NCBI GenBank assembly: GCA_016220005.1
Contig: JACRIV010000014.1
Span: 695-64,694, forward strand
From: Deltaproteobacteria bacterium
GTDB lineage: Bacteria; Desulfobacterota; Deferrimicrobia; Deferrimicrobiales; Deferrimicrobiaceae
DNA length: 64,000 nt
Direction of reading: 5' to 3'
This document shows positions 23,893-47,657 of the stretch, piece by piece. The position numbers and the translations under genes are program-made. Below the pieces are notes generated by a model, which was not told where the DNA came from, did no database searches, and saw only the letters and a list, made by a program, of their open reading frames with translations. Position 1 is the first letter of the stretch; each line of letters starts with the position of its first letter.

Positions 23893-23912
23893 CGGGGGGC
23901 GGCACGGCAGAA

Positions 23913-24029: not shown

Positions 24030-24057
24030 CTGTCCTGCATCGGGGTCGGGTGATCCC

Positions 24058-28971: not shown

Positions 28972-29100
28972 CGGCGATTCACTTCACGCATGCTCAACTG
29001 GGCATTTTCCCTCAAGGCGGGTGATATGGCCGCACGGTAAAAACGAGGCTAAGGCCTCTATTAAAAAAGGTATTCCAAGAAGATAAGGGAAACGCGAATG

Positions 29101-29117
29101 TTGGCACCGAAAATGCT
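29101..29117 (+). promoter_or_regulatory. sigma-54 (-24/-12) promoter: TTGGCACCGAAAATGCT
   Basis: TGGCAC at 29102-29107 and GC at 29115-29116 with the canonical spacing. Lies 130 nt downstream of the sigma-54 activator gene and upstream of the NHL-protein/14-haem cytochrome operon. Confidence 0.6.
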
Positions 29118-29184
29118 CAATTACCGGAGGGGGCAGATGGAAAGGGAAACGTGTGGCAGTTCACGCAGTGCAGGGGGTATGAAG

Positions 29185-30771
29185 ATGTTTTCAAACGGAA
29201 AGGACAGAATGGGCAACTTCTGGAAAAGAGGAATTTTCATCGTTTTTCTGACAGCGATTCTGTTTACATCCGTCGCCGGAGTGGGCCTGGCGGAACTCCC
29301 CCCTCCGACCTGGATGCCGGGGTTCCCGATCATGGCCGGGCCGCAGCTGATGCTGATGTGGTCGCCGGTCGCCGGGGCGGTCAAGTACAAGGTGTTCGTG
29401 AACGGCAAGATGGTCGCCGAAACCGCGGTTTTTCAGCATTTCATGCCGGCGCCCGAGGAGGCCGGTGAGTACAAGGTCAAGGTCGTCGCCGTGGACGCGT
29501 CGGGCAAGGACAGCCCGCCGTCGAGGGAGTGGGTGACGAAGGTGTTCAAGCTCGCCCCCCCCGCAACCGTGTACGATCGGGCCACCGAGAAGTCCGTCAA
29601 CCTCCGCTGGGAGGTGGTCCCGTCCGCGATGGTCTATAACGTTTACAAGCGGGTTGGGAAGGCGACCGAGTACAAGCTGCTGGCCTCCGTGCAGGATACC
29701 TCCTACACCGACTCCGACGTGAAGAAGGACGTGGAGATGCGCTATGCGATTTCCGCCAAAGACGCCTCGGGGAAGGAAAGCGCAAAGTCGAAAGATGTCG
29801 TCGCCATGATCAAGACCGAGGTCATTTCCAAGGCCGCCTATCAGGATCTCATTCCGATCACGAGCAAGGTTCTCATGGTGATGCGGGGCGGGACCCTGCC
29901 CGACGGGCGGGTCGACACGGTGAAGAACCCCGGGGGGGTCACGGAGGTCGAAGGACAGCTTTTCGTCCCTGACGCAACCCGCGGCATCGTCCACGTGTTC
30001 GACCGGGCTTCCGGGGAGTACAAGGGCGCCATCGGCAAGCAGGGGAACGGCCCGGGCCAATTGAACCGGCCGATCGGCATCTCCCATGACCGGGACGGCA
30101 ACCTCCTCGTCTGCGACGCCTTCATGGCCAAGATCGTCCGGCTGAAGCCGTCCGGCGAATTCGTCGACGAATTCCCGTTGCCGCGGTACGTCAACGCGAA
30201 GCTGGACATCAATCTGCAGGCCGGGCCCTCCGACATCCGGCAGCTGTCCACCGGCGAGTTCCTGGTGGTGGACAACGCCAACAGCCGGATCATGCTCCTC
30301 GATCCCTCGGGGAAATACGTCAAAGACATCGCATTCACGGATGCGAAGGGGGCGACCGGGTTTGCCAGGCCCACCTCCATCGACGTCGACTCCAAGGACC
30401 ATCTCTACATCGCCGATGCGCTCAACGGCCGCATCGTGGTAGCGGAAAAGAGCGGCAAGGTCCTGCTCTCCATCGGGCAGCCGGGGGATATCGTCGGGGA
30501 ATTCGGCGGGCTTCTGGGCGTCTGTGCCATCGAGGACATGAAATGGGTGATCGGGGTCGACTCCAAGCACGCCAACCTCCAGATCTTCAGCGCGGAAACG
30601 GGGAAATACCTGTATTCGGTGGCATCCGAGGACAAGAAGGTCGCACTCCTCCTGTCGATCCCGCAGCGTGCGACGCGACTTTCCGACACGACGATCGCGG
30701 TGTCGGAGGCGTTGATCGACTCGAAGGGCGGGGGGATCAAGATCATCTCGATCGACAAGCAGGTGAAGTGA
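29185..30771 (+). CDS. secreted NHL-repeat beta-propeller protein with N-terminal Ig/FN3-like domains
   Basis: Signal peptide. NHL-like blades (GPGQLNRPIGISHDRDGNLLVCD, SRIMLLDPSGKYV, HLYIADALNGRIVV). The start was moved downstream of the sigma-54 promoter to the ATG at 29185, which has an AGGGGG RBS. Confidence 0.6.
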   Translation: MFSNGKDRMGNFWKRGIFIVFLTAILFTSVAGVGLAELPPPTWMPGFPIMAGPQLMLMWSPVAGAVKYKVFVNGKMVAETAVFQHFMPAPEEAGEYKVKVVAVDASGKDSPPSREWVTKVFKLAPPATVYDRATEKSVNLRWEVVPSAMVYNVYKRVGKATEYKLLASVQDTSYTDSDVKKDVEMRYAISAKDASGKESAKSKDVVAMIKTEVISKAAYQDLIPITSKVLMVMRGGTLPDGRVDTVKNPGGVTEVEGQLFVPDATRGIVHVFDRASGEYKGAIGKQGNGPGQLNRPIGISHDRDGNLLVCDAFMAKIVRLKPSGEFVDEFPLPRYVNAKLDINLQAGPSDIRQLSTGEFLVVDNANSRIMLLDPSGKYVKDIAFTDAKGATGFARPTSIDVDSKDHLYIADALNGRIVVAEKSGKVLLSIGQPGDIVGEFGGLLGVCAIEDMKWVIGVDSKHANLQIFSAETGKYLYSVASEDKKVALLLSIPQRATRLSDTTIAVSEALIDSKGGGIKIISIDKQVK

Positions 30772-30876: not shown

Positions 30877-33099
30877 ATGAGAAAGACGCTTCTGTTCTTG
30901 CTCGCGGCCGCAATGGTCGTGCTTTTCTCGCTTCCCGCCTCCGCCGCGATTGTCGGCAGCAAGCACGACATGACCGGCTTGACGGGAATCACCTGGGCGG
31001 GCACGCAGGGTACCGCGGGCGCCTGCTCCTTCTGTCACATCCCGCACAAGGCGACCGGTGCGAAGGCATGGTCCGGTGCGCCGGGCGGTACCCTGGGCGT
31101 CATCGGCACGATCGGGCAGTTGTGCTATGACTGCCACAACCCCACCGGGAAGTTCCAGACCAGCCCGACCGTCGTCCAGATCAACGTGTTCGACACGCCG
31201 ACCTACCACGGTCTGACCAGCGGCAGCCTGCCGACGGGCGACACGATGGTCGGCTCGGGCCTGCCGTACGTCAACGCCGCGGCTGACAACATCACCCCCG
31301 GCCTGATGGAGTGCTCCACCTGCCACGACCCGCACAACACCGCGGCGGGTTCGGACCCGTTCCTCCAGGGGGCCAATACCGTCAACAACATCTGCCAGAA
31401 GTGCCATCAGGGCCGCGGCGACGTCGCCGTGGCGACCGCGCAGGGTTTCGGCGCGGCCGGCAACCCCGGGACCCACCCCGTGAACGTGTTGGCCAACGCT
31501 GCCAGTGCGACCAAGCCGACGACCGTTCCGGCAACGATGAGCCAGGCATACCGGGGCTCGGTGGTGTCCATCACCGGGGCTACGCCGAGAACCAATGCCT
31601 GGCAGGCCGGCGGACACCTCAACAACGGCCTTACTACGGGAACCGTCGTCTGCGTTACCTGCCATTCGATCCACGGCAGACAGGACGCGGCCCAGACCAC
31701 CGTCGTGGTCTTTACCGACAACACCGACGCGGGCGCCGCCAGGAAGACGCTGCTGTCGGTCGTCGACTCGAACAACGCCTCCAGCCTGTGCCAGGGGTGC
31801 CACGGGACCAACCCGGGCAACGCGGCCAACTTCACCCACCCGGTGAACGTGGCCACTCCCGACACCACGATCTTCAGCACCACGACCTCCCCTTATCAGT
31901 TGGGGCTGGGGACCGGGAACGCCAAGGCGCTCTGCCGCTCCTGCCACGGCGTCCACCCCGCCTCGACCGGCCGCGTAGCGACGGCGCAGACCCCGCTCCT
32001 GTACTCGGCGCTGGAAGGGGCGACGCCGTTCTGCAGCCAGTGCCATCCCGGCTCGGCGACGTTTATCGGAAACCACCACCCGGCCAACGTGCCGTGGTCC
32101 TCGGGAGTGGCGGGGATTGCGGCCAACGCTACCGCCCTCGGCCTGAACAACTCCGCCTGGGCGACCACGAACAACATCCAGTGCTACAACTGCCATGCCG
32201 GCCACAACGATCTCGACAACACCTCGAAGCTCCGCATCGCCAAGACGGCGGGCGTCTGGGGAAGCACGGCGAACACGCTTACCACGACCGGGTTCAGAGG
32301 GGCCTGGACCGCACAGTGCGTGGGGTGCCACTCGGGATACCCCGCGTTCTACACGGCGAACCAGGACGGCCTCCGTTCCCAGGGCAGCCACTTCGTGGGC
32401 AACGTTTCGACCGCGACCCCGAACCTCATGGACTACGTGTTCGCGGGGACCTGGCCGGCCAGCACCACGGCGTGGTCCTACTATGAAGGCACGACCACGG
32501 CTCCCAGGGTGGCCTGCCAGTCCTGCCATACCCTCATGAACAACGGCCTCCCGCGCACGGCCACGCAGCCCCTGCTGCTGGGGAACTACAGCGACAACCT
32601 GGAGGCCCAGGCGATCGGCACCGGGAACGGCCCTGGCTTGTGCCGCAGGTGCCACATCCCGACCCAGGACAAGTCGGCGTCAGCCGCCAACACCTGGTTC
32701 ACCGGGTACCAGACGACCGACACGCGTACTACGCTCATCCAAGCGACCCACCCTCTGGAGAAGATCCAGTCGGGCGCGGCCACGAACATCGCGACGTATC
32801 CGATCGCAGCCGGCGCCTATGTGACGTATCACACCGCCCCAGGGACCAACACGAACAACGTGAACTGCGAATCGTGCCACAGCGCCCACGGGACCTACGT
32901 GGGAATGGGCGGCTACATCCTGAAGGCCGCGTCCGGCGGGGCCGGAGGCACGAACTACTCCGGGAACTTCTCTCCGTCAGCCTCACCGACCAACTGGACG
33001 ACGATCCAGGGGCTGACCCGGGCGAGCTGGTTCCCGACTACGAAGGACGAGACCGGGTTCTGCAACCTGTGCCACGGTCAAGGCACGAAGGCGAAGTGA
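30877..33099 (+). CDS. large secreted 14-haem cytochrome c, Thr/Gly/Asn/Ala-rich
   Basis: Signal peptide. 14 canonical CxxCH motifs spread over 740 aa. Low-complexity T/G/N-rich linkers. Strong RBS AAGGAGGAAAGG. Confidence 0.85.
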   Translation: MRKTLLFLLAAAMVVLFSLPASAAIVGSKHDMTGLTGITWAGTQGTAGACSFCHIPHKATGAKAWSGAPGGTLGVIGTIGQLCYDCHNPTGKFQTSPTVVQINVFDTPTYHGLTSGSLPTGDTMVGSGLPYVNAAADNITPGLMECSTCHDPHNTAAGSDPFLQGANTVNNICQKCHQGRGDVAVATAQGFGAAGNPGTHPVNVLANAASATKPTTVPATMSQAYRGSVVSITGATPRTNAWQAGGHLNNGLTTGTVVCVTCHSIHGRQDAAQTTVVVFTDNTDAGAARKTLLSVVDSNNASSLCQGCHGTNPGNAANFTHPVNVATPDTTIFSTTTSPYQLGLGTGNAKALCRSCHGVHPASTGRVATAQTPLLYSALEGATPFCSQCHPGSATFIGNHHPANVPWSSGVAGIAANATALGLNNSAWATTNNIQCYNCHAGHNDLDNTSKLRIAKTAGVWGSTANTLTTTGFRGAWTAQCVGCHSGYPAFYTANQDGLRSQGSHFVGNVSTATPNLMDYVFAGTWPASTTAWSYYEGTTTAPRVACQSCHTLMNNGLPRTATQPLLLGNYSDNLEAQAIGTGNGPGLCRRCHIPTQDKSASAANTWFTGYQTTDTRTTLIQATHPLEKIQSGAATNIATYPIAAGAYVTYHTAPGTNTNNVNCESCHSAHGTYVGMGGYILKAASGGAGGTNYSGNFSPSASPTNWTTIQGLTRASWFPTTKDETGFCNLCHGQGTKAK

Positions 33100-33136: not shown

Positions 33137-33178
33137 GGTGCCGGCCCCTGGGATTTAAGGGGCCGGCACCTGCTTCTT
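33137..33178 (+). terminator. rho-independent terminator
   Basis: 13-bp perfect stem GGTGCCGGCCCCT/AGGGGCCGGCACC followed by TGCTTCTT. Confidence 0.7.
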
Positions 33179-33206: not shown

Positions 33207-33713
33207 ATGCGTGGATGGAAGATCCCGGTCGCAGCGGCTGCGCTGCTGGCTTGCTTCGCCACGGGCGCCCCGGCGATCGAGGTGGGCAAACCCGCGGTTC
33301 CCTTCACCCTGACGAATCCGGTGACCCAGATGGAAGTGTCGCTCCCGGCCGCCCTCGAGAAGAACCCGGCGCTGATCGTCTTCTTCAATACGTCGTGCGC
33401 GGCGTGCGAGGCGGAGCTGGTCGCCGCCAAGAACTACCTGCACAACAATCCCAACGCCTTCAAGCTGTTCGCAATCGCCATCGACTCGACGTCCGACGCC
33501 CGTGCCCGCGTGAGCAAGTTCATCGAGGACAAGGGCCTCGGCGTGGCCATCGTGCTCCTCGACCCGAAGTTCGAGGTGGCCGAGAAGTACGGGTTCAACT
33601 TCACACCGGCCGCCGTGGGCATCGACAAGGAAGGGAAAGTGAAGTTCGTCGTCAACGGCTTCTCGAGGACGGAGTCGAAAGTGTTTACAGGGAACCTCGA
33701 ATCCCTCAAGTAG
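33207..33713 (+). CDS. TlpA/ResA-like periplasmic thiol-disulfide oxidoreductase (CAAC)
   Basis: Signal peptide. Thioredoxin-fold motif LIVFFNTSCAACEAEL. RBS AAGGAGGA. Confidence 0.75.
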   Translation: MRGWKIPVAAAALLACFATGAPAIEVGKPAVPFTLTNPVTQMEVSLPAALEKNPALIVFFNTSCAACEAELVAAKNYLHNNPNAFKLFAIAIDSTSDARARVSKFIEDKGLGVAIVLLDPKFEVAEKYGFNFTPAAVGIDKEGKVKFVVNGFSRTESKVFTGNLESLK

Positions 33714-33851
33714 ATTCGCAGGCGCCCGTTTCGACTCGCGAGGGGGAATTGCCTTGTAGTGGGCTCCGGCCGGCGGCGACGGGCCGGAGCCCTTTTCGCG
33801 ACCCCTTCGAAGCGGCTTCCCGGACATCTTCCGTGAGAAGGGCAGGATCGA

Positions 33852-35570
33852 ATGTTTTTCCGCGATGATTCAAAGACCCGAGCCTTGTGTATCCCGTTGC
33901 TGCTCTGGCTTATGTGCGCCGGCTGCCGTGACGGAGAGCGGAACCCCCCGCAGCAGGGCGGTGCGAAAACCGCCGCGGAGAACGCCGCGGCGGGGAGAAC
34001 GGCCGACCTTTCGCCGCAGACCGCGGCGCGGGTGGGCGGTCTCGACGTGACGTTGAGCGACCTGAGAGGGGAGGCGGCCGACAGCAAATACGACGCGTAC
34101 AAGGCGGGATCCCCCGAGATGTCGGCCTTGAGAGCCCTGGACAAGCTGATCACGGACCGCTTGCTTTACCAGGAAGCCGCCGAGAAGAAGGCGTACGAAA
34201 ACTCCCCGATCGAACGGGAGTTGCGGGTCACGCAGGAAGTCTGGCTGGCCTCCCTCTATGTCAACGAGGTACTGCGCAGGCAGGTCAAGGTGAGCGAAGA
34301 GGAGATGAAGCCCTTCCTTCCCGACAAGTGGGACTCGGTGGAGATCTCCATGCTGGTGGCCGACGACGAGGCCGCCGCGAGGAAAGCGGTCTCCGCCGTC
34401 CGGGAGGGGAAGTCCACCTTCGAGGAGGAGGCGAAGAAGGGAGCGGGCACCATCGCCCCGAAAAAGGGACGCGTCGGCTGGATCCTGCGGAACACGGCGT
34501 TCTTCACGGACAAACGCCATGTCGACAGGATCTTCTCCCTGAAGCCGGGGGAGATGACGGACCCTTTCCTTGGGCCGCTGGGATGGACGGTGGTCCGGGT
34601 CGACAATCGCCGCGGGCTCTCCAAATTGGAGATCGAAGAGATCAAGAATACATCGCGGGAGGGCCTGTACAACAGGAAGTTCGACGAGCTCCTGAACCGG
34701 GACGCCGCCCTGCACAAGTGGACGCAGTACGCCGACAATACCGTTGCCAAGTCGCCTGGCGCAGTCGTCCTGGAGGGGCTGGGCCGGGTCTACACCAAGG
34801 CGGACTTCGACACGTTCGTCAAGATCCACCTCCAGTCGGGACACCTGATCCAGCAGCCCGAGACTCCCAGGGAGATCCTCCGCAACTTCGCGCGGCACAT
34901 GTCGTGGGCGGAGGAGGCGGGGCGGGCAGGGCACGACAGGCGCACCGAATTCATCGAGAGAATGAGGAGTTTCCGGATCGCGAGGACCGCGCAGGCCGTG
35001 GAGGCGAAGATCAAGGAATCCGTGAAACCCGATAAGGATGAGCTTCTCGCTTACTACAAGAAGAACAAGAACCGGTTCCGGGAGGAGGATTCCCTCTGGC
35101 TCCTGATCCTTTCCGCCGGCGGCCAGTCCCAGGCCCGCGAGTTCCGGAAGCGGGCGGAGGCCGGCGAGGACTTCAAGTCGCTCATCCGGCAGGCGGGGAG
35201 CGACGCGCCCGACGCCCGCGGGGCGGAGGAAGTCGGCCCGCTGACCCGGAAGATGTTTCCCCCGGACCTGGCCGCCATCCTCTTCTCCCTCCGCGAAGGC
35301 GACGTCTCCCAGGTCATCCCGCTGGCGGGGCAATACATCGTGGCCAAATGCACGCGGTTCAAGGGGGGTAAGACGAAGAGCTTCGAAGCCGTTCGAAAGG
35401 AAGTCCTTAACGCCTACCGGAACGACAACTACATGCCCTTGCTCGAAAAAAAGGTGGCGGAGCTGAAGGCGCGCTACCCCGTCCGGATGAACGAAAAGGC
35501 TGTCGAGATCGTCGCAAACGAGATCAGGGAGGAGGCGGCGAAACGTGGAGGCAAGCCGAAATACCACTGA
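33852..35570 (+). CDS. SurA/PpiD-like periplasmic chaperone with two parvulin (PpiC) domains; lipoprotein
   Basis: Lipobox LMCAGC. SurA-N-like region. Parvulin signatures GRVGWILRN...PFLGPLGWTVVRV and GQYIVAKCTRF. Confidence 0.65.
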   Translation: MFFRDDSKTRALCIPLLLWLMCAGCRDGERNPPQQGGAKTAAENAAAGRTADLSPQTAARVGGLDVTLSDLRGEAADSKYDAYKAGSPEMSALRALDKLITDRLLYQEAAEKKAYENSPIERELRVTQEVWLASLYVNEVLRRQVKVSEEEMKPFLPDKWDSVEISMLVADDEAAARKAVSAVREGKSTFEEEAKKGAGTIAPKKGRVGWILRNTAFFTDKRHVDRIFSLKPGEMTDPFLGPLGWTVVRVDNRRGLSKLEIEEIKNTSREGLYNRKFDELLNRDAALHKWTQYADNTVAKSPGAVVLEGLGRVYTKADFDTFVKIHLQSGHLIQQPETPREILRNFARHMSWAEEAGRAGHDRRTEFIERMRSFRIARTAQAVEAKIKESVKPDKDELLAYYKKNKNRFREEDSLWLLILSAGGQSQAREFRKRAEAGEDFKSLIRQAGSDAPDARGAEEVGPLTRKMFPPDLAAILFSLREGDVSQVIPLAGQYIVAKCTRFKGGKTKSFEAVRKEVLNAYRNDNYMPLLEKKVAELKARYPVRMNEKAVEIVANEIREEAAKRGGKPKYH

Positions 35571-35580
35571 GCTGGACCGC

Positions 35581-36165
35581 ATGACGGGTGGGGGGGCCAG
35601 AAAGGGAATGCCGTGCGGGGCGGCGGTGATTGCCATGGCCGCCGCCTTGGCGCTGACGGCCGGCCTGATGGGGCCGCCCCGGGCGTGCGCCACCTCCCCC
35701 GAGAAGGACGGCAAGATGGTGGGGAAGGCTTCACCGCGGTTCACGGCCGTTGATCTTGACGGCAAGACGAGAAGTTTCGAAGAGGTGAAGAACGGTTCGC
35801 ACGCCGTGGTGGTCAACTTCTGGGGGTTGCGCTGCTCGGCCTGCATCCAGGAGATGCCTTACCTGGACGACATTTACAGGAAATTCGCCAAGGAAGGCCT
35901 GTTCGTCTTCGGGGTGAACGTGGACGGGATGGACAGGGACGCCATCCGGAAGAAGATGAAACAGATGAGTCTCGCCCCCAGCTACTGCATCGTCGAGGAC
36001 CCGGATATGAAGCTCGCGGACCTTTTCAACATGAGGGCCGCCCCCCTGACCTACGTCATCGATGCAAAGGGCATCATACGGTTCCAGCACGAAGGGTTCG
36101 AGGAAGGCGACGAGAAGGAGCTGGAGAAGGCGGTCGACTCCGTCCTCCGCGGCAAGGCGGATTGA
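35581..36165 (+). CDS. TlpA family thiol-disulfide oxidoreductase (CSAC)
   Basis: Signal/anchor peptide. AVVVNFWGLRCSACIQEMPYL. Start chosen at the ATG at 35581 (ORF track 35545). Confidence 0.75.
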   Translation: MTGGGARKGMPCGAAVIAMAAALALTAGLMGPPRACATSPEKDGKMVGKASPRFTAVDLDGKTRSFEEVKNGSHAVVVNFWGLRCSACIQEMPYLDDIYRKFAKEGLFVFGVNVDGMDRDAIRKKMKQMSLAPSYCIVEDPDMKLADLFNMRAAPLTYVIDAKGIIRFQHEGFEEGDEKELEKAVDSVLRGKAD

Positions 36166-36202
36166 GGGAAGAGTACGGCTTCCTTTTGCAGGAGAGCGGG
36201 AC

Positions 36203-37357
36203 ATGGGAAAGATGACGCCAGGTGAAAACCGGGCACGCCGCGGTGCGAATGTTCTCCTGAAGTCGTTCGTCCTGGCGGTTTTCCTGACCGCCGTGATCGC
36301 CGGGACCCGGTCGTTTTCCGGGGAAACCGCCGGAAGCCCGTACCAGGGTTCCGAGAAGTGCGCCCCCTGCCATCAAATCCAGTACAAGGGGTGGGTGAAG
36401 ACCTTCCACAGCACGGTGGTGCAGGACGCCAGGAAGAACCCTTCCGCCATCATGGCGGACATGAACGCCCCCGACCTGCCCTTCAAGAAGGAAGACATCG
36501 ACCTCACGATCGGCGGCCACTGGGACCAGCGGTACCTCACCAGGATCGGGGACGATTACTACATCCTGCCGAGGCTATGGTCGGTCCAGAGCGGGAAATG
36601 GCGCCCCTACAGCACCTATGGGTGGCAGAAGCGCCCCTACTCGAAGTATTGCGTCGGGTGCCACTCCGTCGGCTTCGACCCGAAGACCAGGAGGTTCAAG
36701 GAGCATTCCGTGGGCTGCGAATCGTGTCACGGCCCCGGGGCGGAACACGTCGCCAATCCCGCCAGGGAGAACATCGTGAACCCCAAACGGCTCCCCGAGG
36801 ACCGGTCGGAGGATATCTGCGCCTCCTGCCACGTCAGGGGGAAGGACATCTCGGGCGAATACTTCTTCCCCATCGGGTGGAAGCCGGGGAATGACCTCGC
36901 GAAATTCCTCGTTCCCATCGAGAAAGACGAGGGAGAGAGCGACCACAACGCCATCCACCGTCTCTGGGACAAGTGGCGGGCGGACCGGGAGGCCCAGGCA
37001 AGGTCCCGTTGCGAGGTGTGCGGCATCCATCAGAACGTGAAGCCCCAGGGGCAGCAGATAAGCGTGGACGCGATCTGCATGAGCTGCCACGAATACGGGG
37101 AAAAGATGTCGAGCCACACGCACCACAAGGCCGACACGAAGATCGGCTGCGTGGACTGCCACCGGCAGAAGAACCCGGAATCGAATGAAAACAAGGAGAA
37201 CAACGTCCACTCTTACGGATACTTCCTGATCCACCCGCAGGGGTGCTGGGACAAGGAGATCTACAAGCAGTGCGGGAGCTGTCATTCGGGAAAGACAGGG
37301 CAGTGGGCATATGATATCTTTAAAAGTTGGGAAAAAACGGTGATCGTGGACCATTAA
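36203..37357 (+). CDS. heptahaem cytochrome c (c554-like N-terminal signature)
   Basis: Signal peptide. Seven CxxCH motifs plus one CxxCG. Begins EKCAPCHQIQYKGWVKTFH. Start ATG at 36203 after GCAGGAGAG. Confidence 0.8.
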   Translation: MGKMTPGENRARRGANVLLKSFVLAVFLTAVIAGTRSFSGETAGSPYQGSEKCAPCHQIQYKGWVKTFHSTVVQDARKNPSAIMADMNAPDLPFKKEDIDLTIGGHWDQRYLTRIGDDYYILPRLWSVQSGKWRPYSTYGWQKRPYSKYCVGCHSVGFDPKTRRFKEHSVGCESCHGPGAEHVANPARENIVNPKRLPEDRSEDICASCHVRGKDISGEYFFPIGWKPGNDLAKFLVPIEKDEGESDHNAIHRLWDKWRADREAQARSRCEVCGIHQNVKPQGQQISVDAICMSCHEYGEKMSSHTHHKADTKIGCVDCHRQKNPESNENKENNVHSYGYFLIHPQGCWDKEIYKQCGSCHSGKTGQWAYDIFKSWEKTVIVDH

Positions 37358-37359
37358 CC

Positions 37360-37935
37360 ATGACCAACGGGGGCGCGGTGATGAGGGGTGCGTCGCAGCT
37401 GTTCGTGCTTTTCCTTCTGATCGGTATGGTTCCGACGGGAACTCTCCCTGCGTTCGCGCAGGACACGGCGATGCGGCTGAAGATCGGCGAGAAGGCGCCC
37501 GACTTCAAGCTGAAGGACGTGATGACGGGCAAGGTGGTCAGCCTTCACGAGTTCACGGGCAAGAAGGTGGTGATGCTCGAGTTCTGGGCCACCTGGTGCG
37601 ACATCTGCAAGCGGGAGATGCCCAACCTCGTCAAGCTCCACACCGGGTGGAAAGACAGGGGCTTCGAGCTCCTCTCGATCGTCCTCCCCTCCGGCAACGT
37701 CGACGACATCCGCAAGATCGTGAAGGATAAAAGGATCACCTACGCCGTCCTCCTGGACGCCGACCTTTCCGTGGCGACGAAATCCTTCGGGCTTGCCGGC
37801 CCCATCCCGCTGAAGGTGGTCATCGACCACAAGGGCGTCATCCGCTACACGCACGTGGGCGACTATCCCCCGGGGGAGGATGAGCTGCCCTTCGTCCTCG
37901 AAGACCTCATCAAGGAAATGGGGAAGGGGAAGTGA
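37360..37935 (+). CDS. TlpA family thiol-disulfide oxidoreductase (WCDIC)
   Basis: VVMLEFWATWCDICKREMPNL. Signal peptide. Start chosen at the ATG at 37360, just after the cytochrome stop. Confidence 0.75.
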   Translation: MTNGGAVMRGASQLFVLFLLIGMVPTGTLPAFAQDTAMRLKIGEKAPDFKLKDVMTGKVVSLHEFTGKKVVMLEFWATWCDICKREMPNLVKLHTGWKDRGFELLSIVLPSGNVDDIRKIVKDKRITYAVLLDADLSVATKSFGLAGPIPLKVVIDHKGVIRYTHVGDYPPGEDELPFVLEDLIKEMGKGK

Positions 37936-38471
37936 GCCGCTGCGCCGTGCGCGTGACACCCTTCCGTCGGCGGGGGGTGGCCCTTCTTCTCTCCCTCTGC
38001 TTCCTGGGCATCGCCGCGACCGCCCTTCCCGCGGACAAGACCGTCGAGGTGGGGCATGCGGTCCCGGACTTCTCCCTGTCCGGCCTGGAGGGGCCGAAGG
38101 TGTCTTTCAGGAAGGACATCCTGGGCAAGGCGCCCCTCACCCTCCTGTTCTTCATGACCACCGCGTGCAGCGCGTGCTACGAGGAGCTCCAGGAGATCAA
38201 CGAGTTCGTCGGGGAAAACCCCGGCAAGGTCGACGTCTGGTGCATCGCGGTGGACCTGCGGGGGGCGCAGACCGTGGGTCCGTTCCGGCAGGCGAACAAG
38301 TTCCGGGTGAAGTACCTGATCGACCCGAAGTTCTCTCTCCCCAGGACATTTGGTTTCAACTATACCCCGTCCCTCGCCTTTGTCGATTCGAAGGGCGTGC
38401 TGCTTCACAAGAAGGGCGGCTACACGCCCAATGAACGCCTCTCCGACCTGATCCGGACGTTCCTCAAGTAA
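37932..38471 (+). CDS. thioredoxin-like protein (CSAC)
   Basis: GTG start overlapping the upstream stop (GTGA). LTLLFFMTTACSACYEEL. Signal peptide. Confidence 0.65.
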   Translation: MSRCAVRVTPFRRRGVALLLSLCFLGIAATALPADKTVEVGHAVPDFSLSGLEGPKVSFRKDILGKAPLTLLFFMTTACSACYEELQEINEFVGENPGKVDVWCIAVDLRGAQTVGPFRQANKFRVKYLIDPKFSLPRTFGFNYTPSLAFVDSKGVLLHKKGGYTPNERLSDLIRTFLK

Positions 38472-38480
38472 AGGATCTCG

Positions 38481-39674
38481 ATGCCTGCCTGGAAAAGGGT
38501 TTACCTGCTTGTCGCAATCGGCCTGCTCCTCCCGCCGGGCGCGTGGGGGTTCGGCCCCGGCGCGAAGGGATACGCGGGCTCCGAGAAGTGCCGGAAGTGC
38601 CACGAGGAGATCTACATCCAGTGGAAGCGGACCCCGCACGCCAACATGCTTCGGGACGCGAAGAAGAACCCGGACGCAATGGCGGCGAAGGATTTCTCCG
38701 GCGTTCCCTTCAAGAAAGAGGACGTCTGGTGGACGATCGGGAGCCACTGGATCCAGAAGTACCTGACTTTCATCGACAATGACTACTATGTTCTCCCGAA
38801 GTACTGGAACCTCGTCAACAACGACTGGGAGCCGTACTCGATCTTCAATTGGAGGGAGCGGCCCTACACGATCTACTGCGACGGGTGCCATACTACCGGG
38901 TTCGATCCCGAGACGAAGTCGTTCCACGAACCGTCCATCGGCTGCGAGGCGTGTCACGGCCCCGGCGAGAAGCACGCCGCGACCGGCGCGGCGGCGGACA
39001 TCGTGAACCCCGAGAAGCTCTCGAAGGAGCGGTGGGACATGGTGTGCGAGGCGTGCCACACGGACGGGAAGGACACGAAGGCCGGCGGCCAGTTCCCATT
39101 CCCCGCGCGTTACCGGCCCGGGGAGGACCTCACGAAATATTTCACCGATTTCTTCGCTCCCAAGCCCAAGTCGAAGAAATGGTACTGGGGGACGATGGAC
39201 TACAAGGAACGGCACCGGATGTTCCTGTTCTGGCAGTCCAAGTTCTATTCGACCGCGCGCGCGTGCGACGTGTGCGGATTCGATCGGGGGATCACGGTCA
39301 AGGATGAGCGATACATGAGCCGGGACGAGTATTGCGGCACGTGCCACGGGAAGATCTACAAGTTCGCCTCGGTCCACTCGCACCACGATTCGAGGACGGT
39401 CCGCTGCATCGACTGCCACACGCCGCAGGGGACCTCCGGGGGGCAGCGGTACAGCATCCACGACCACAAGTTCGACTTCTCGGGGCCGGAGCTTCCGTGC
39501 GTCGAGTGCCACGAGGAGAAGGATATCCGAGGGAAAAAGGCGGAAAACCACGACTTCCACTTTTCCCGTGTCAAGACGCCTGGAAGCCTGACCCTGGAGC
39601 AGGCGTGCGCCAGGTGCCATCCGGACAAGGGGATCCCCGAGATCCTGAAGGACTGGAAGCCCGGAGCGAAGTAG
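38481..39674 (+). CDS. octahaem cytochrome c, paralogue of 36203-37357
   Basis: Signal peptide. Eight CxxCH motifs plus one CxxCG. Begins EKCRKCHEEIYIQWKRTPH. Colinear with its paralogue. Confidence 0.8.
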   Translation: MPAWKRVYLLVAIGLLLPPGAWGFGPGAKGYAGSEKCRKCHEEIYIQWKRTPHANMLRDAKKNPDAMAAKDFSGVPFKKEDVWWTIGSHWIQKYLTFIDNDYYVLPKYWNLVNNDWEPYSIFNWRERPYTIYCDGCHTTGFDPETKSFHEPSIGCEACHGPGEKHAATGAAADIVNPEKLSKERWDMVCEACHTDGKDTKAGGQFPFPARYRPGEDLTKYFTDFFAPKPKSKKWYWGTMDYKERHRMFLFWQSKFYSTARACDVCGFDRGITVKDERYMSRDEYCGTCHGKIYKFASVHSHHDSRTVRCIDCHTPQGTSGGQRYSIHDHKFDFSGPELPCVECHEEKDIRGKKAENHDFHFSRVKTPGSLTLEQACARCHPDKGIPEILKDWKPGAK

Positions 39675-39677
39675 CCC

Positions 39678-41585
39678 ATGGCTCTTTCCGCCGCAGAGAC
39701 CTTCGGCAATCTCGCGAAGAACAGCCGCCTGCAGAACGCGCTGATCGCCCTGTTCTTCCTGGGCATCTCGGCCCTGTTTTTCAACAAGATCTTCACCAGC
39801 GACTATGGCATTCACCTGTCCATCGGCAAGCACTTCATCGAAACCGGCAAGGTTCCCGACAAGGAATTCATGAACTACCCGCTTCTGAATCAACCAATGA
39901 ACTACGAGGAACTCGGTTTCCAGGCCATTCTCTACACGGTCTATCGCGTGGTGGGATCGGACGGCGTCTCCGTGTTCGTCTGGCTGATGGCCACGCTCTC
40001 CTTTTTCTTCATCTACAAATCGCTGCGGGCAAGGGACATCAACCCCTATATCGCCCTGTTCACCATGCTGATTTTCGCGATGCCGTTCCGGATTCGCCTG
40101 CAGCCCAGGCCGGAGATCATCGCCTACTTCTTCACCTCGTACCTGATCTACGGATGTTCGCTTTTCTACTACAAGGGAAACCGGAAAATCCTCTACACGT
40201 TCCCGCTGGTTTTCCTGTTGTGGGCCAACATCCACCCCTCGACGCTGGCCGGGATCGGGGCTGTGGGCGCATTCGGGACGCAAAGCCTCGTGGTGATCTA
40301 CCGGGACAAATTCGCCAAGGCTTCCCTGAAAAACAACCTGTTCGTCCCGCTGGGGATTTTCGTTCTCTGCGTTCTCGCCACGTTCCTGAGCAAGCACGGG
40401 GTTGAAAGCGTGTTGACCCCCGTGAGGCTAATGGTCAACCCCAACCAAATGACCGGTATCTCGGAGATGACCTCCGTGAAGAATTCCGGCTTTTACGAAT
40501 TCTATAAATACATTCTCGCGGTAAGCGTGGTGTTCGGAGCGCTTGGCCTCATTGCCTGGAAATTGAAGATCCACGACATCATCATGGCCGTGTACGGCTT
40601 GAAGCTGCCCCTTCAGGTGGCCCGCGGCATGGCGTTCATGTCGGTCTTCGCCATTCCGATGGTCGCGCAGTCCTTCGACGGGTTCCTGCGGCGGATCCGG
40701 ACCTACCTGAGCCGGCGCGAGGAGGCTTCGCTCAAGGCCGGGATGAAGGCGGTGAAGGAGAAGGAGCCTTCCCGGAAGAAACAGGGGAAAAAGGTACATC
40801 CGGCCGCAGAGCAGAAACCGACCCCCGCCTCGCCTGCGCCTCTGCCCGCCCTCCGGTATTTCCGGCTGCCGATCGTCCTTGCCTGGCTGGTCTTCCTCGG
40901 GGCGACGGGCTACGGGGCCTACTACATCCGCGTGGGCACGGCGGACATCGTCGAGAACGGGATCGGCCTGACGGAGCACAAGTTCTCGCTGAAGTCCGGC
41001 GAGTTCCTGAGGAATCTTGACATCAAGGGGAACATGTTCAACTTCTTCGACCTGGGGGGGTTCGTGGAGTGGCAGGTCTACCCCCGGAAATTGACCTTCA
41101 TCGACGGTCGGGCAGGCAACCCCACGTTGTTCATGGAGCACCAGGCGATCACGTCGGGCATGGGGGACATGGAAAGCACGTTCCGGAAGTACAACATCAC
41201 CTATGTCATCACAAAGACGGTCGACTCCGCGGGGATGGTGCTGCCCCTGATCAATTACCTCGCGATGAGCCCGAGCTGGGAGCTCGTGTTCGCCGACGGG
41301 CTTGCGGTCGTTTTCGTGAAAAACATACCGGAGAACCGGGCGATTATCGACAGGTACAAGATCTCCAAGAATGTCCTCGGCGCCCAGATCGTCAGCGAGA
41401 TGTTGCATTCCACCTACCTGGGGATCAACAGGTTCTTCGTTTATTACACGATCGGGAACATCTACATGAACAGCGGCGATTATGGAAACGCCCGGAAGTT
41501 CTTCGAATTGGCGCGTTCCATCCACGACGACCCGAATTTGGCGGCCCTCGTCAGCCGGCTGGACGGCATGCAAAGAATGCGCTGA
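39678..41585 (+). CDS. GT-C fold membrane glycosyltransferase (PMT/ArnT-like) with a C-terminal periplasmic TPR-like domain
   Basis: About 11 N-terminal TM helices, a KQGKK linker, further TM helices and a soluble C-terminus with a TPR-like motif (NIYMNSGDYGNARKFFELA). Lower GC than the cytochrome island. Confidence 0.5.
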   Translation: MALSAAETFGNLAKNSRLQNALIALFFLGISALFFNKIFTSDYGIHLSIGKHFIETGKVPDKEFMNYPLLNQPMNYEELGFQAILYTVYRVVGSDGVSVFVWLMATLSFFFIYKSLRARDINPYIALFTMLIFAMPFRIRLQPRPEIIAYFFTSYLIYGCSLFYYKGNRKILYTFPLVFLLWANIHPSTLAGIGAVGAFGTQSLVVIYRDKFAKASLKNNLFVPLGIFVLCVLATFLSKHGVESVLTPVRLMVNPNQMTGISEMTSVKNSGFYEFYKYILAVSVVFGALGLIAWKLKIHDIIMAVYGLKLPLQVARGMAFMSVFAIPMVAQSFDGFLRRIRTYLSRREEASLKAGMKAVKEKEPSRKKQGKKVHPAAEQKPTPASPAPLPALRYFRLPIVLAWLVFLGATGYGAYYIRVGTADIVENGIGLTEHKFSLKSGEFLRNLDIKGNMFNFFDLGGFVEWQVYPRKLTFIDGRAGNPTLFMEHQAITSGMGDMESTFRKYNITYVITKTVDSAGMVLPLINYLAMSPSWELVFADGLAVVFVKNIPENRAIIDRYKISKNVLGAQIVSEMLHSTYLGINRFFVYYTIGNIYMNSGDYGNARKFFELARSIHDDPNLAALVSRLDGMQRMR

Positions 41586-41588
41586 TCG

Positions 41589-42623
41589 ATGAAGGGGACC
41601 GGCACCCTTTTCCTATCCGTCGTCATCGTCAACTGGAACGGCAGGCATCTGCTCAAAGAATGCCTCGATTCGATCCTCGCCCAGGGGGATGAGGATCTCG
41701 AGGTCATCGTCGTCGACAACGGATCCCGGGACGGCTCGCCCGATTTCCTGAAATCCCACTATGCCCGAAAGATCCTGCTGATCGAGCTCGCGACGAACGA
41801 AGGGTGGTCGGGCGGGAACAACAAGGGGATCGAGAGCTCCCACGGCGAATACGTCCTGCTTCTGAACAACGACGTCTGCCTGGGAAGCGATTTTTTCCGG
41901 CGTCTCCGCGAAGGGATCTCGATGCATCCCGGCGCGGGGATGTACGCCACGAAAATCCTCAATTACCACGATCGTTCGGTCATCGACAACACCGGGCACG
42001 TCATCTTCTGGGACGGCACGGCACGCGGCAGAGGACGGCGGAGAAAAGACGGGCCGGAATTCGGGAAGGAAGAGGAAGTGCTCTGCCCGAGCGGCGCCGC
42101 CGGCGTCTACAAGAGGGAAATCTTCGAAAATGTCGGCCCGATCGACGACGATTACTTTACCTACGGGGAGGACACCGAGCTGGGCCTCAGGGCGAGGCAG
42201 GCCGGCTACCGGTGCTATTACCTCCCCTCCGCGGTCCTCTACCACAAATACTCCGCATCCGGCGGGCCGTTCACCCCCCGGAAAATCTATTACGTGGAAA
42301 GGAACCGGGTTTGGACCGTCATCAAGCTCTTCCCATGGTACCTTGTCGCCGTTTCCCCCGTGATGACGATGGCGAGGTACGTCTTCGGGCTGTACGGGCT
42401 GGTTTCCGGGAAGGGGGCCTTGGGGAAGCTGCGGGAGAGCTATTCTTCGAGGGAAGCCATCGGCTCCCTCGTGCGTGCCTATGCGGACGCATTGAGGAAG
42501 GTCCGCGTGATGTGGAGGAAACGACGGTCGCTGCGGGAGACGTCAAAGCTCAGCGACGGGGATTTCGTGCGGATGCTGTACCGTTTTTCAGCGGGCATAA
42601 GGGAAGTGAGCTACAACGATTAG
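41589..42623 (+). CDS. family 2 glycosyltransferase (rhamnosyltransferase-like)
   Basis: SVVIVNWNG...VIVVDNGSRDGS...NNDV motifs and YGEDTELGLR (DXD/ED region). Confidence 0.8.
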   Translation: MKGTGTLFLSVVIVNWNGRHLLKECLDSILAQGDEDLEVIVVDNGSRDGSPDFLKSHYARKILLIELATNEGWSGGNNKGIESSHGEYVLLLNNDVCLGSDFFRRLREGISMHPGAGMYATKILNYHDRSVIDNTGHVIFWDGTARGRGRRRKDGPEFGKEEEVLCPSGAAGVYKREIFENVGPIDDDYFTYGEDTELGLRARQAGYRCYYLPSAVLYHKYSASGGPFTPRKIYYVERNRVWTVIKLFPWYLVAVSPVMTMARYVFGLYGLVSGKGALGKLRESYSSREAIGSLVRAYADALRKVRVMWRKRRSLRETSKLSDGDFVRMLYRFSAGIREVSYND

Positions 42624-42655
42624 GACCCGAGGGATCGGGGACGGGTAACCGCGGA

Positions 42656-43570
42656 ATGCCAGGAAACGGCGGAAGACGCGTCATCGGGCCGGCGAAGGAA
42701 AATATTTGCGCGGTCGTCGTCACCTTCAACCCCGACCCCGGTTTTCCGGAGCGCATGGCAGGGATTGCAGGACAGGTGAGCAGGATCGTGGTCGTGGACA
42801 ATTGCTCGGCCCCGCGGGCCAGGGACATGCTGAATGCCACCTGTGTTCGGCCCGATGTCGACCTGATCCTCAATGACGAAAATCTCGGCGTGGCGGCAGC
42901 CTTGAACCAGGGTGTGCGCCGCGCCGGGGAAAGGTCCCTCCGATGGGTCCTCGCCCTGGACCAGGATTCCACGGCGGAGGGATTCCTCGTGGAGACGCTC
43001 ATCGATGCTTTCAACCACTATCCGGGGAAAGAGAGGATCGCCGTCATCGGGTCGAACTACTTCGATGAAAAGAGGGGGAAGCGATTCATCAAGAACGATC
43101 GTGCCGATCCTCCTTGGATCGAGCAGACGACGGCCATCACATCCGGGAGCCTGCTCTCGATCTCGGCGTTCGAACGCTTCGGTCCTTTCCGTGAGGATTT
43201 CTTCATCGACCACGTCGACGACGAATACTGTCTGAGGGCGCTTTCGAAAGGGTTCAAGGTGATCCTGTGCCGCCGGCCCGTGATCCGGCATCCCATCGGG
43301 GCGGCGATGGCAATACCCCTGTTCGGGAAGCCGGTCTGGACTTCCGGCCATTCCGGGATCCGGCGTTATTACATGATCCGGAATTTCGTCGTTTTGGCCC
43401 GGGAATACCTCTTCACACGGCCGGGATGGATCCTTTCGCGTGCTTACCGGCACGCCGCCTTTGCGGTTTTGGCGCTGCTGTTGGAACCCAGCAGGGGGGA
43501 AAAGCTGCGGATGATGGTGAGGGGGATGCGTGACGGGCTTGCCGGGAGGATGGGCAGGCTCCCCGCCTGA
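42656..43570 (+). CDS. family 2 glycosyltransferase
   Basis: ICAVVVTFNPD...VVVDNCS...ALDQD and DHVDDEYCLRA motifs. ATG at 42656. Confidence 0.75.
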   Translation: MPGNGGRRVIGPAKENICAVVVTFNPDPGFPERMAGIAGQVSRIVVVDNCSAPRARDMLNATCVRPDVDLILNDENLGVAAALNQGVRRAGERSLRWVLALDQDSTAEGFLVETLIDAFNHYPGKERIAVIGSNYFDEKRGKRFIKNDRADPPWIEQTTAITSGSLLSISAFERFGPFREDFFIDHVDDEYCLRALSKGFKVILCRRPVIRHPIGAAMAIPLFGKPVWTSGHSGIRRYYMIRNFVVLAREYLFTRPGWILSRAYRHAAFAVLALLLEPSRGEKLRMMVRGMRDGLAGRMGRLPA

Positions 43571-45572: not shown

Positions 45573-45725
45573 GTTCACATATGGTAAAAATAGTTTTTAA
45601 ATCATGAAGTCGCAAATGGCACATCCCCCTCGAATCCACATCGCAAATGATATCCTCAAAATGAAAGCGTTATCGGGTTTACGTGTTGTTTTCTCTTTAT
45701 GTCGTAGTTCCTTGAGTAGCTTGGG

Positions 45726-46739
45726 TCAATGCTTTTTAAAAACAGATGTGTATGTTCCTCCCCATCCTTCAAGCCGCTGTAAATTTTTAATCACCAAGTG
45801 AAAAACGGGCATATCGATAATCCTTAACGCCATTCTTGACAAACGGGAAATTTGATTTTTTATTTTATAACTCGCAGCAGTGCGGTGTTTATCCGACGCA
45901 CTATCATGAAAGTCCTCTTCAAGGGATTCCTTCTTTATGAGTGAATACAAATATCTGATTGCATGACTGACGGATAAATCCCACCAATTGTATCTGCTGA
46001 AATTAACGCTTCCTTCGTCCCTTGTTGTTACAAGGGCAGTTTCCAATCCTTGAGATTCGGCGACTTTTGTAAGCACCGCCGGGGGAATAAGTGTTAAATG
46101 GCGGGGAGCGTCCAAATGAGCCCAGAAACGATGAAAAATCTTGAATTGAAGAGATTTTGGATTAGGAGTGGCGATAATAAGTATTCCATCTGGATTCAGT
46201 TTTTCGGATGCGGCCTTAATCACAGCCAAGGGATCGGGTAGGTGCTCTATGACGTGCCAGAGAGCGATCACATCGTATAGGGTTGCCTCGTTTAGTCTTG
46301 AACAGATATCCGTGCTATTTATGACACTTACACCAACCACATCGGACAGAAATTTACAGCAACGTTCATCCATTTCCATCGTATCGACATGAAACCCAGC
46401 CCTTTTCGCGAGAAATGCGAATACTCCGTAGGCCGGCCCGATTTCCAGAAGTTTACCATGGGAGGTGTACGTTAATAGGAGATCAAGCTTATATTTTTCC
46501 TGTTCGGCCTTCTGCGCCAATCCATTTATAGTGGGCAAATCATACGCCGGATAATAATCCGGATAAAAACGACTCATATTTTCCGGGATTGGATGGAGGA
46601 AAATCACTCCGCAACTTTTGCAGATGTAATATTTAAACGATTCATGAGAAAGTCTCAGGTTGAAATCGAACGTATCGAAGTAGTGTGTTCCTTCTTTGTT
46701 GCAAAACGGGCAAGGTCTCCGCATATTAAAAACTCTCAT
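45726..46739 (-). CDS. class I SAM-dependent methyltransferase with an N-terminal zinc ribbon (sugar C-/O-methyltransferase-like)
   Basis: CPFCN...CKSCG zinc ribbon. The SAM motif LLEIGPAYGVFAFLAKRAG and ALWHVIEHLPDP. Sits in AT-rich DNA. Confidence 0.65.
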   Translation of the reverse strand: MRVFNMRRPCPFCNKEGTHYFDTFDFNLRLSHESFKYYICKSCGVIFLHPIPENMSRFYPDYYPAYDLPTINGLAQKAEQEKYKLDLLLTYTSHGKLLEIGPAYGVFAFLAKRAGFHVDTMEMDERCCKFLSDVVGVSVINSTDICSRLNEATLYDVIALWHVIEHLPDPLAVIKAASEKLNPDGILIIATPNPKSLQFKIFHRFWAHLDAPRHLTLIPPAVLTKVAESQGLETALVTTRDEGSVNFSRYNWWDLSVSHAIRYLYSLIKKESLEEDFHDSASDKHRTAASYKIKNQISRLSRMALRIIDMPVFHLVIKNLQRLEGWGGTYTSVFKKH

Positions 46740-46747
46740 TGCTGTTG

Positions 46748-47626: not shown

Positions 47627-47657
47627 TCTATAGCAATCCTGAAGACTATATTTACAA

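Follow-up and report, generated by a model that had tools for sequence, protein, structure and literature searches.

The stretch of DNA analyzed here belongs to a Deltaproteobacteria bacterium of the family Deferrimicrobiaceae (contig JACRIV010000014.1 of assembly GCA_016220005.1, positions 695 to 64,694 of the forward strand), and the window refers to the whole of these 64,000 nucleotides, in whose coordinates all features are given unless another locus is named. The interval 33207-39674 carries the genes of two multihaem c-type cytochromes, here called cytA and cytB, together with those of four exported thioredoxin-fold proteins (Tlp1 to Tlp4) and one peptidyl-prolyl isomerase (PPIase). This region represents an operon module, old and conserved, that belongs to an uncultured Deltaproteobacteria/Deferrimicrobia-like lineage; judging from sequence, its products include two periplasmic multihaem cytochromes that are paralogues within the OcwA/MccA/c554/NrfA superfamily. 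In a first-pass annotation, the interval had been described as a duplicated cassette of TlpA-like thioredoxins followed by a c554-like cytochrome.

The cassette lies inside a long gene row of the + strand, in a window of 61-66% GC. Tlp1 (33207-33713, +), an exported TlpA/ResA-like thioredoxin-fold protein with CAAC at nt 33396-33407, is followed by the PPIase gene (33852-35570, +), which sits inside the interval and had gone unmentioned in the first-pass annotation; its SurA/PrsA-like product contains two parvulin (rotamase) domains, with Pfam scores of 99 bits for Rotamase_2 and 56 bits for Rotamase. Tlp2 (35581-36165, +), the ResA/DsbE-like redoxin associated with cytA, has the motif WGLRCSACIQEMP with CSAC at nt 35833-35844 and precedes cytA itself (36203-37357, +), which encodes an exported heptahaem cytochrome with seven CxxCH motifs and an orphan CEVCG at aa 270-274 (nt 37010-37024). 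Tlp3 (37360-37935, +; the start given by NCBI is 37381 instead of 37360) is the TlpA/ResA-like conserved partner of cytB-type genes, with the motif WATWCDICKREMP and CDIC at nt 37597-37608, and Tlp4 (37932-38471, +) is a redoxin of the Tlp1 type with the motif MTTACSACYEEL and CSAC at nt 38166-38177. Finally, cytB (38481-39674, +) encodes an exported octahaem cytochrome with eight CxxCH motifs and an orphan CDVCG at aa 262-266 (nt 39264-39278), and is followed by the gene of a 635-aa polytopic membrane protein with C-terminal tetratricopeptide repeats (TPR; 39678-41585, +), with which the conserved part of the cassette ends in the window group.

From the PPIase gene to the membrane protein gene, the intergenic distances are 10, 37, 2, -4, 9 and 3 nt, and no terminator-like site was found inside the cassette. 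The negative value corresponds to the GTGA overlap already pointed out at 37932, in which the GTG start of Tlp4 (37932-37934) overlaps the TGA stop of Tlp3 (37933-37935). That the whole set constitutes a single tightly packed operon is supported. The membrane protein itself had only TPR matches in Pfam and the PDB and belongs to no Pfam family otherwise; its homologues, at 33-37% identity, were found directly 3' of cytB in six related loci (L001, L002, L004, L005, L006 and L009).

Two paralogous cytochromes with a degenerate haem-5 motif

The two cytochromes had been regarded as clear paralogues, and this was borne out by BLASTP, which aligned them with 37% identity over 357 aa (242 bits, E 2e-81); either cytochrome scored at most 31 bits against five other multihaem cytochromes of the window, so that the paralogy stands. 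The sequence facts stated in the first-pass annotation all hold as well, including the N-terminal EKCxxCH...W..T.H signature, the seven CxxCH motifs plus CEVCG of cytA, the eight CxxCH motifs plus CDVCG of cytB and the colinear order of the haems, the last haem of cytB being absent from cytA.

The proposal that a tandem duplication had been followed by divergence holds as regards paralogy, but not as regards a recent event within this genome. When the two halves were compared as DNA, one matching stretch was left, of 391 nt and 66% identity, and no long repeats were found at the locus. By neighbour-joining, the cytB-type clade was recovered with a bootstrap of 100 and the core cytA-type clade with 98, and the whole group in which the CxxC is not followed by His split from its CxxCH-type relatives at a bootstrap of 100. 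The cytA-type and cytB-type clades each hold members from the window group, L012, L093 and L094/L098, and the lineages that they span are only about 50-58% identical. Since both clades contain the same lineages, the duplication is older than those lineages, and a recent tandem duplication is ruled out by the residual DNA similarity together with the breadth of the clades; the cytA/cytB duplication is ancient. The further claim that a whole reductase-cytochrome unit was duplicated found no support. Tlp2 and Tlp3 are mutual best matches among the four Tlps (29% identity, E 1e-18); in a wider redoxin set, they were exclusive sisters in 1 of 100 bootstrap replicates, and therefore co-duplication of a redoxin-cytochrome unit is unsupported.

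The order Tlp2-cytA-Tlp3-Tlp4-cytB-membrane protein was found again in six or seven contigs of metagenome-assembled genomes (L001-L006 and L009), with protein identities of 64-80% for Tlp3, Tlp4, cytA and cytB, and of about 33-47% for Tlp2 and the membrane protein. Genes of the cytA type and the cytB type also stand side by side in the distant L012, L093 and L094/L098, where the cytB-type proteins are 52-58% identical to cytB. Proteins identical to cytB and Tlp3 are recorded at NCBI for a groundwater metagenome-assembled genome with the label Deltaproteobacteria, and relatives of the locus are labelled Deferrimicrobiaceae or Deferrisomatales. On L009, a contig of isolate MFD05942, the genes cytA, Tlp3, Tlp4 and cytB are split into several frames at 7600-11200, which looks like the result of assembly frameshifts rather than pseudogenes.

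The best solved relative of both cytochromes is 6I5B (phmmer E 3e-17 and 8e-19; profile E 2e-29), that is, OcwA, the nonahaem cell-surface cytochrome of Thermincola potens. The AlphaFold2 (AF2) model of cytB (pLDDT 85, pTM 0.83) also had OcwA as its top Foldseek match (E 6e-15, probability 1.0), followed by OmhA (6QVM) and then by MccA as a weak match, while the pLDDT of the cytA model was less than 50 for residues 268-297 and 75 for the model as a whole. In OcwA, haems 2 and 5 are five-coordinate, solvent-exposed and placed one at either end of the chain, and haem 5 is an NrfA-type catalytic haem (PMC6703420). A motif-by-motif profile alignment demonstrated that haems 1-4 and 6-9 are colinear between cytB and OcwA, and a beta-sheet domain between haems 1 and 2 is common to OcwA and these cytochromes. 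However, OcwA has nine CxxCH motifs, including that of haem 5, whereas cytB has only eight and cytA seven, with CDVCG or CEVCG at the haem-5 position. The distal His-His pair of OcwA over haem 5 (H380/H381) corresponds to Tyr324/Ser325 in cytB. At haem 2, H281 of OcwA is kept (H245), but the catalytic H282 is replaced by an invariant Arg (R246), which results in R-H-R in cytB and I-H-R in cytA. Additionally, the C-terminal three-helix bundle of OcwA is missing, cytB ending 17 residues past its last haem motif with only short helices (372-379 and 385-390) in the AF2 model, and the host lineage is of the Gram-negative type, unlike that of OcwA.

The label 'c554-like' was found appropriate for the N-terminal four-haem module, which scored 42 bits with Pfam PF13435 (cut-off 20.8), but not for the whole protein, which is OcwA-like and reached 34 and 16 bits with NCBIfam NF043010, whose cut-off is 400; the c554 domain would then be a shared module and not the mark of an orthologue. 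These cytochromes share 'clade 3' of the NrfA/HAO/c554 superfamily with MccA and c554, both of which lost the haem equivalent to OcwA haem 5 entirely (bioRxiv 10.1101/2022.02.24.481543). In comparison with MccA, to which sequence similarity is marginal (E 0.09 and 1e-3), no CX15CH motif is present, every Cys lies in a CxxC motif and the orphan CxxC is kept. In comparison with NrfA, there is no CxxCK, only the region of haems 6-8 matches NrfA chains (E 1e-4 to 1e-9), and the NCBIfam NrfA score is 15.6 against a cut-off of 595. Selenoprotein chemistry like that of MccSep/ExtKL was also considered and rejected, the match being marginal and confined to the N-terminus (E 0.005).

The internal CxxCG that had been called a 'pseudo-site' aligns exactly with the haem-5 motif of OcwA, CLKCH, in the profile alignment, and what is added to the earlier description is that this site is the haem-5 motif of OcwA-type cytochromes in degenerate form. 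When 1.84 billion cluster representatives were searched with a profile, 269 proteins were retrieved at E ≤1e-30 and 4158 at E ≤1e-10. In the haem-5 column of the aligned family, 78 sequences have CxxCH and are OcwA-like with an 'HHQ' pocket, while the cytA/cytB clade has CxxC followed by G (110), by E (11) or by Q, I, T, N, M, K, D, L or A, the Cys pair of the orphan site being present in all aligned clade members. As the alignment presents it, the fifth-haem motif has degenerated, in that the proximal His was lost and the His-His pair above it is also gone, and both Cys remain. In the searchable literature, no description of an orphan CxxC at the OcwA haem-5 position and no CXXCG site was found, and a 2026 preprint on extracellular electron transfer in peat held nothing relevant to a CXXCG site.

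Two further observations concern the fate of this motif. In two OcwA-like proteins with the 'HHQ' pocket and no redoxin neighbours, L036 6785-8233 (CTTCG) and L056 1209-2630 (CITCG), haem 5 also has CxxCG, and this independent occurrence indicates that the haem-5 His was lost more than once. In L010/L011 (P0072), a member of the cytB clade, the orphan CxxC was lost altogether; this cytochrome gene is a solitary one flanked by a Fic-domain gene and a PPDK gene, with hyp hydrogenase-maturation genes close by, and it is the sole case seen in which the CxxC and the redoxin neighbours were lost together.

What the retained Cys pair does could be explained in different ways. A tentative proposal, which we consider rather unlikely, is that haem 5 was replaced by a redox-active CxxC disulfide that trades electrons with cognate Tlps, either from the seven or eight haems through the disulfide to a Tlp, or in the opposite direction, in which case the haem chain would receive thiol-derived electrons from the Tlps. 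Such a haem-to-thiol relay is in agreement with the exact position of the CxxCG on a motif that is CxxCH in the 78 relatives, with the retention of both Cys while the next residue is free, and with the Tyr-Ser replacement of the distal His-His pair; haems 2 and 5 being solvent-exposed at opposite chain ends (PMC6703420) would suit it as well. The CxxCG segment is a coil with pLDDT <50 in both AF2 models (residues 263-266 in cytB), and every CxxCH lies in a confident short helix, which also points to the relay, although low pLDDT is weak evidence. On the other hand, among the conserved His residues H266 and H269 disappeared from the clade while H89 and H327 were acquired, a balance of two lost and two gained that is compatible with a haem still attached at CxxCG.

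A very improbable alternative is that a metal such as Cu(I) is bound by the orphan CxxC, perhaps together with the conserved His residues close to it (H327/H329), the Tlps keeping its Cys reduced, in a haem-metal enzyme like MccA. TlpA keeps the Cys residues of ScoI and CoxB reduced for metallation during CuA assembly, which is a precedent for this role of the Tlps, and an 'HDH' motif co-varies with the CxxC-not-His state. MccA, a structural relative, holds Cu(I) by two Cys (PMC6703420; bioRxiv 10.1101/2022.02.24.481543), but its Cu sits at haem 2 and not at the haem-5 position. Moreover, HDH is replaced by HSY in cytA, H329 goes along with the last haem being present, and no copper chaperone gene is found in the cassette. 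An Fe-S cluster at the orphan CxxC was rejected, since cytA and cytB are Sec-exported c-type cytochromes.

Redoxins adjacent to the cytochrome genes

The TlpA-like CxxC genes that had been placed 5' of each cytochrome were confirmed there, Tlp2 (35581) for cytA, and Tlp3 (37360) and Tlp4 (37932) for cytB. All four Tlps score above the Pfam AhpC-TSA/Redoxin cut-offs, with the active sites CAAC, CSAC, CDIC and CSAC from Tlp1 to Tlp4, and all four have hydrophobic N-terminal signal-like segments. Tlp1 reached 48 bits for AhpC-TSA and 43 for Redoxin, Tlp2 reached 72 bits for AhpC-TSA, with ResA 4NMU as its best PDB match (E 1e-16), and Tlp3 reached 82 bits for AhpC-TSA and 77 for Redoxin, its PDB relatives being 3KCM, ResA, DsbE and TlpA. 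Taken as a set, their best solved relatives are ResA, DsbE/CcmG, TlpA, StoA and Etrx. The W-C-x-x-C ... E-x-P signature of TlpA/ResA is present in Tlp2 and Tlp3 and absent from Tlp1 and Tlp4. The NCBIfam equivalog level was not reached, ResA scores being 35-89 bits against a cut-off of 170, with DsbE and TlpA also below theirs. A protein identical to Tlp3 is named 'TlpA family protein disulfide reductase' at NCBI, while JGI calls the orthologues 'peroxiredoxin'; a reductase function of the Tlps would follow from family membership only. The Tlps share the fold, the CxxC and the export signals with ResA, CcmG (DsbE), TlpA and StoA, and Tlp2 and Tlp3 also share W-C-x-x-C-[KRI]-x-E-x-P with them. 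However, unlike those proteins, the Tlps have CxxC dipeptides without Pro, occur as many paralogues each tied to one cytochrome gene, and have no CcdA/DsbD nearby.

It was also considered that the Tlps could be general envelope thiol-repair or antioxidant proteins of the Etrx, ScsC or peroxiredoxin kind, merely co-regulated with a respiratory cytochrome island and making no specific contact with cytA or cytB. The Pfam AhpC/TSA-Redoxin assignments, the JGI 'peroxiredoxin' labels, the presence of Etrx1/2 among the closest solved relatives, the many redoxin paralogues per island and the existence of some cytochrome homologues without Tlps would fit this view. Nevertheless, it is judged improbable, in that the active sites are CxxC of the TlpA/ResA type and not of the peroxiredoxin type, the neighbourhood contains no target gene for an Msr or peroxiredoxin, and the same orthogroup is found directly 5' of the same cytochrome type, with start/stop overlap, across lineages and neighbourhoods. 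A peroxiredoxin function as such was rejected on account of the TlpA-type CxxC active site.

The adjacency of redoxins and cytochromes was surveyed in 80 metagenome loci with family members, in which all open reading frames were scanned with redoxin hidden Markov models; cytochromes were clustered at 62% identity, flanks of at least 1.5 kb were required, and a redoxin was counted if it lay within 2.5 kb. Under these terms, a redoxin was found in 12 of the 16 CxxC-not-His clusters and in none of the 40 CxxCH clusters, to which the OcwA-like cytochromes belong (Fisher 3e-9); counted by locus lineage, the contrast is about 6/13 versus 0/40. A Tlp3-type gene lies directly 5' of a cytB-type gene in five of the eight lineages of the 7/8-haem subfamily (L012, L093, L094, L096 and L098), in otherwise unrelated neighbourhoods, the cassette of L012, for example, being surrounded by housekeeping genes. 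The two genes overlap by 1 nt in L012, 11 nt in L094 and 4 nt in L096. Orthologues of Tlp2 were found 5' of cytA-type genes in L012 and L093, whereas Tlp4 occupies its place between Tlp3 and cytB only in the close relatives of the window (L001-L006 and L009) and groups with Tlp1 (31% identity, E 4e-15). The redoxin orthogroups were recovered with bootstraps of 92 for Tlp3, 100 for Tlp4 and 60 for Tlp2.

Redoxin adjacency is a real feature specific to the 7/8-haem subfamily. A sister subclade with 10-11 haems (L013, L097, L099, L100 and L101) keeps the orphan CxxC, followed by Q, T, K, E or I, and has Tlps nearby only in L013. Its cytochrome gene is always preceded by the gene of a 2-TM (two transmembrane segments) HAMP-like protein of about 190 aa without any Cys motif (L013 5752-6372, L097 1409-1948, L099 671-1252, L100 5417-6004 and L101 3202-3780), to which it is translationally coupled, mostly by overlap; a role of this protein in membrane anchoring or as a partner in signalling is conceivable. 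Within the 7/8-haem cytochromes, L007/L008 and L095 kept CEVCG and have no redoxin within 6-10 kb. Conversely, a 14-haem cytochrome of 740 aa without orphan CxxC has its own Tlp1-type redoxin and PPIase in the window, in L096 and in L003. The case for tying the orphan CxxC strictly to an adjacent Tlp is weakened by both the 10-11-haem subclade and these redoxin-paired cytochromes without orphan CxxC, and adjacency may follow lineage habit rather than the CxxC itself.

These distributions bear on the haem-to-thiol relay in both directions. The contrast between the two groups of clusters speaks for it, as does the loss of both the CxxC and the Tlp in L010, within the cytB clade. Additionally, neither the window nor the five cassette contexts L012, L093, L094, L096 and L098 showed a DsbD/CcdA gene, and the cassettes of these five lineages have no haem lyase either, so that neither a membrane thiol transporter nor a lyase accompanies the Tlps in five independent settings. 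A partial precedent is found in NapB, a c-type cytochrome reported to reduce CcmG in Shewanella dsbD mutants (PMC8782879), although in that case an overproduced dihaem protein has a suppressor effect, and no CxxC relay, gene linkage or dedicated partner is involved. Against the relay, the 10-11-haem subclade keeps the orphan CxxC with no Tlp in four of five loci and a 2-TM HAMP-like partner instead, CEVCG occurs without Tlp in L007/L008 and L095, the correlation is confounded by lineage, redoxins also pair with cytochromes that have no orphan CxxC, no thioredoxin-cytochrome fusion was found among 271 family proteins, and the cassette encodes no target for reduced Tlps. The related proposal, that the haem wire of cytA/cytB and the Tlps constitute a cytochrome-powered periplasmic thiol-disulfide system, as an alternative to CcdA/DsbD driven by the respiratory chain or, in reverse, as a way for thiol-derived electrons to enter that chain, is regarded as doubtful.

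The surrounding cytochrome island

Upstream of the cassette, in the same gene row, a gene for an NHL/beta-propeller protein (29098-30771, +) precedes that of the 740-aa cytochrome (30877-33099, +), the first gene of the row, which is rich in Thr/Gly/Ala, has 14 CxxCH motifs and matches no solved structure by sequence; its location may be extracellular or at the cell surface. Between this gene and Tlp1, a strong stem-loop of 13 bp, 11 of them G-C, is found at 33137-33170, with a tail that is not T-rich, and its role could be that of an attenuator or of an element for RNA stability, by which the large cytochrome is raised over the downstream accessory genes. In L096 and L003, the Tlp1-type redoxin likewise adjoins the large cytochrome and the PPIase, and double-rotamase genes occur beside the cassette in L096 (552 aa) and in L101 (311 aa).

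The upstream half of the island (16867-25886) runs from a c3-type tetrahaem cytochrome through ResB/ResC, a 432-aa cytochrome and two redoxin-TPR fusions to a 5-haem cytochrome, followed by a NapH-like Fer4_5 membrane protein and then by an 8-haem cytochrome, and a sigma-54 two-component pair is also found in the island. ResB/CcsB (17351-18730, +; Pfam ResB, 359 bits) and ResC/CcsA (18777-19616, +; Pfam Cytochrom_C_asm, 194 bits) would constitute the System II cytochrome c synthase that attaches the haems; they lie 17 kb upstream, and in other lineages they form no part of the cassette. The 432-aa cytochrome has 13 CxxCH motifs plus CX4CH (aa 31) and CX3CH (aa 413). In the two fusions, the redoxin domain has no CxxC (SxxS or none) and the TPR part matches the CcmH/CycH family. 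The order cytochrome, two redoxin-TPR genes, cytA, Tlp3 and cytB is the same in L094 and L098.

Downstream of the membrane protein gene, GT2 glycosyltransferase genes begin at 41589, and in L093 (37-2285) a PMT_2 (GT-C) gene and a GT2 gene adjoin the cassette; such membrane-protein and GT2 neighbours (39678-43570 in the window, and L093) hint at a link between the module and glycosylation. On the - strand, a block of genes for glycosyltransferases and polysaccharides includes a stretch at 45700-47700 with a GC of 0.42 against about 0.62, which carries a methyltransferase gene and an open reading frame without Pfam match and was likely acquired horizontally. About 15 kb of polysaccharide genes separate the cassette from a tandem TlpA-like pair on the - strand, 55329-55874 (WSIYCASC) and 54739-55317 (WSFFCGPC), whose orthogroups (bootstraps of 83 for 'WSIYC' and 65 for 'WSFFC') travel with the cassette elsewhere, being found near it in L001 and L094 and directly after cytB in L093. 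Altogether, the window contains eight redoxin-fold genes, six of which have a CxxC.

A favoured role in cytochrome maturation

With moderate confidence, the reading favoured here is that the Tlps are dedicated periplasmic thiol reductants or holdases that mature their cognate cytochromes, since the family assignments, the ResBC neighbourhood, the one-redoxin-per-cytochrome pattern and the precedent of SirH/NrfF-type systems (PMC6976685) fit it. The direction and purpose that we infer for the Tlp-cytochrome interaction would be as follows. After Sec export of a cytochrome, the Tlps would hold the 8-9 cysteine pairs of the cognate apocytochrome, the orphan CxxC included, in the reduced state, and the reduced apocytochrome would then receive its haems from the System II synthase encoded upstream in the window (ResB/ResC). 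Help with folding would come from the PPIase and from the island's redoxin-TPR proteins without CxxC, and the mature cytochromes, with a conserved positively charged R-H-R pocket over haem 2, would serve as periplasmic electron carriers or reductases.

Several findings are in agreement with this role. Tlp3 and cytB genes overlap or nearly abut in five of the eight subfamily lineages, the own-redoxin pattern extends beyond the orphan-CxxC cytochromes to the 14-haem cytochrome (in the window, L096 and L003), and ResB/ResC are present in the same window as CcmH/CycH-type TPR proteins fused to a CxxC-less redoxin. Dedicated maturation sets for an atypical haem site are also known from other systems, such as the PPIase MccB with CcsA1. 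In NrfEFG and SirEFH, the latter with the TlpA-like SirH, a TlpA-like thioredoxin and a PPIase are encoded beside a multihaem cytochrome with one non-CxxCH site (PMC6976685), but those systems centre on a specialised haem lyase, whereas this cassette has none.

Other observations weigh against a maturation role. A single CcmG/ResA normally serves all the cytochromes of a cell, while eight redoxin-fold genes lie within 64 kb here, and the cognate orthogroups (Tlp3 among them, with its bootstrap of 92) evolve about as slowly as the cytochromes; so many redoxins and so slow a cognate evolution look more like a specific partnership than generic maturation. Likewise, no redoxin was found in the flanks of the 40 CxxCH-type clusters, which have as many haems, and the same cytochrome occurs without adjacent Tlp in three lineages (L007/L008, L095 and L010). 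In the dedicated maturation systems known for atypical sites, a special haem lyase is always present, and neither such a lyase nor a CcdA/DsbD to feed the Tlps was found in the cassettes of L012, L093, L094, L096 and L098. The haem-to-thiol relay, the main rival of this role, covers the retention of the Cys pair, the dismantled haem-5 pocket, the absence of CcdA and lyase and the partner-like slow Tlp3, which the maturation role does not.

The orphan CxxC at the OcwA haem-5 position represents a concrete and directly testable feature under either of these two readings. If the relay were true, one-electron haem chains would be coupled to two-electron periplasmic thiol chemistry without a membrane thiol transporter, and the replacement of a haem by a disulfide would represent a new outcome in the 'grafting and pruning' of multihaem cytochrome evolution. 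If the Tlps act in maturation, each cytochrome would have specific factors of its own, namely a thiol reductant cognate to it, a PPIase and a TPR holdase, in an abundant uncultured lineage of groundwater and soil, which would be useful for annotating such islands and for the heterologous expression of such cytochromes.

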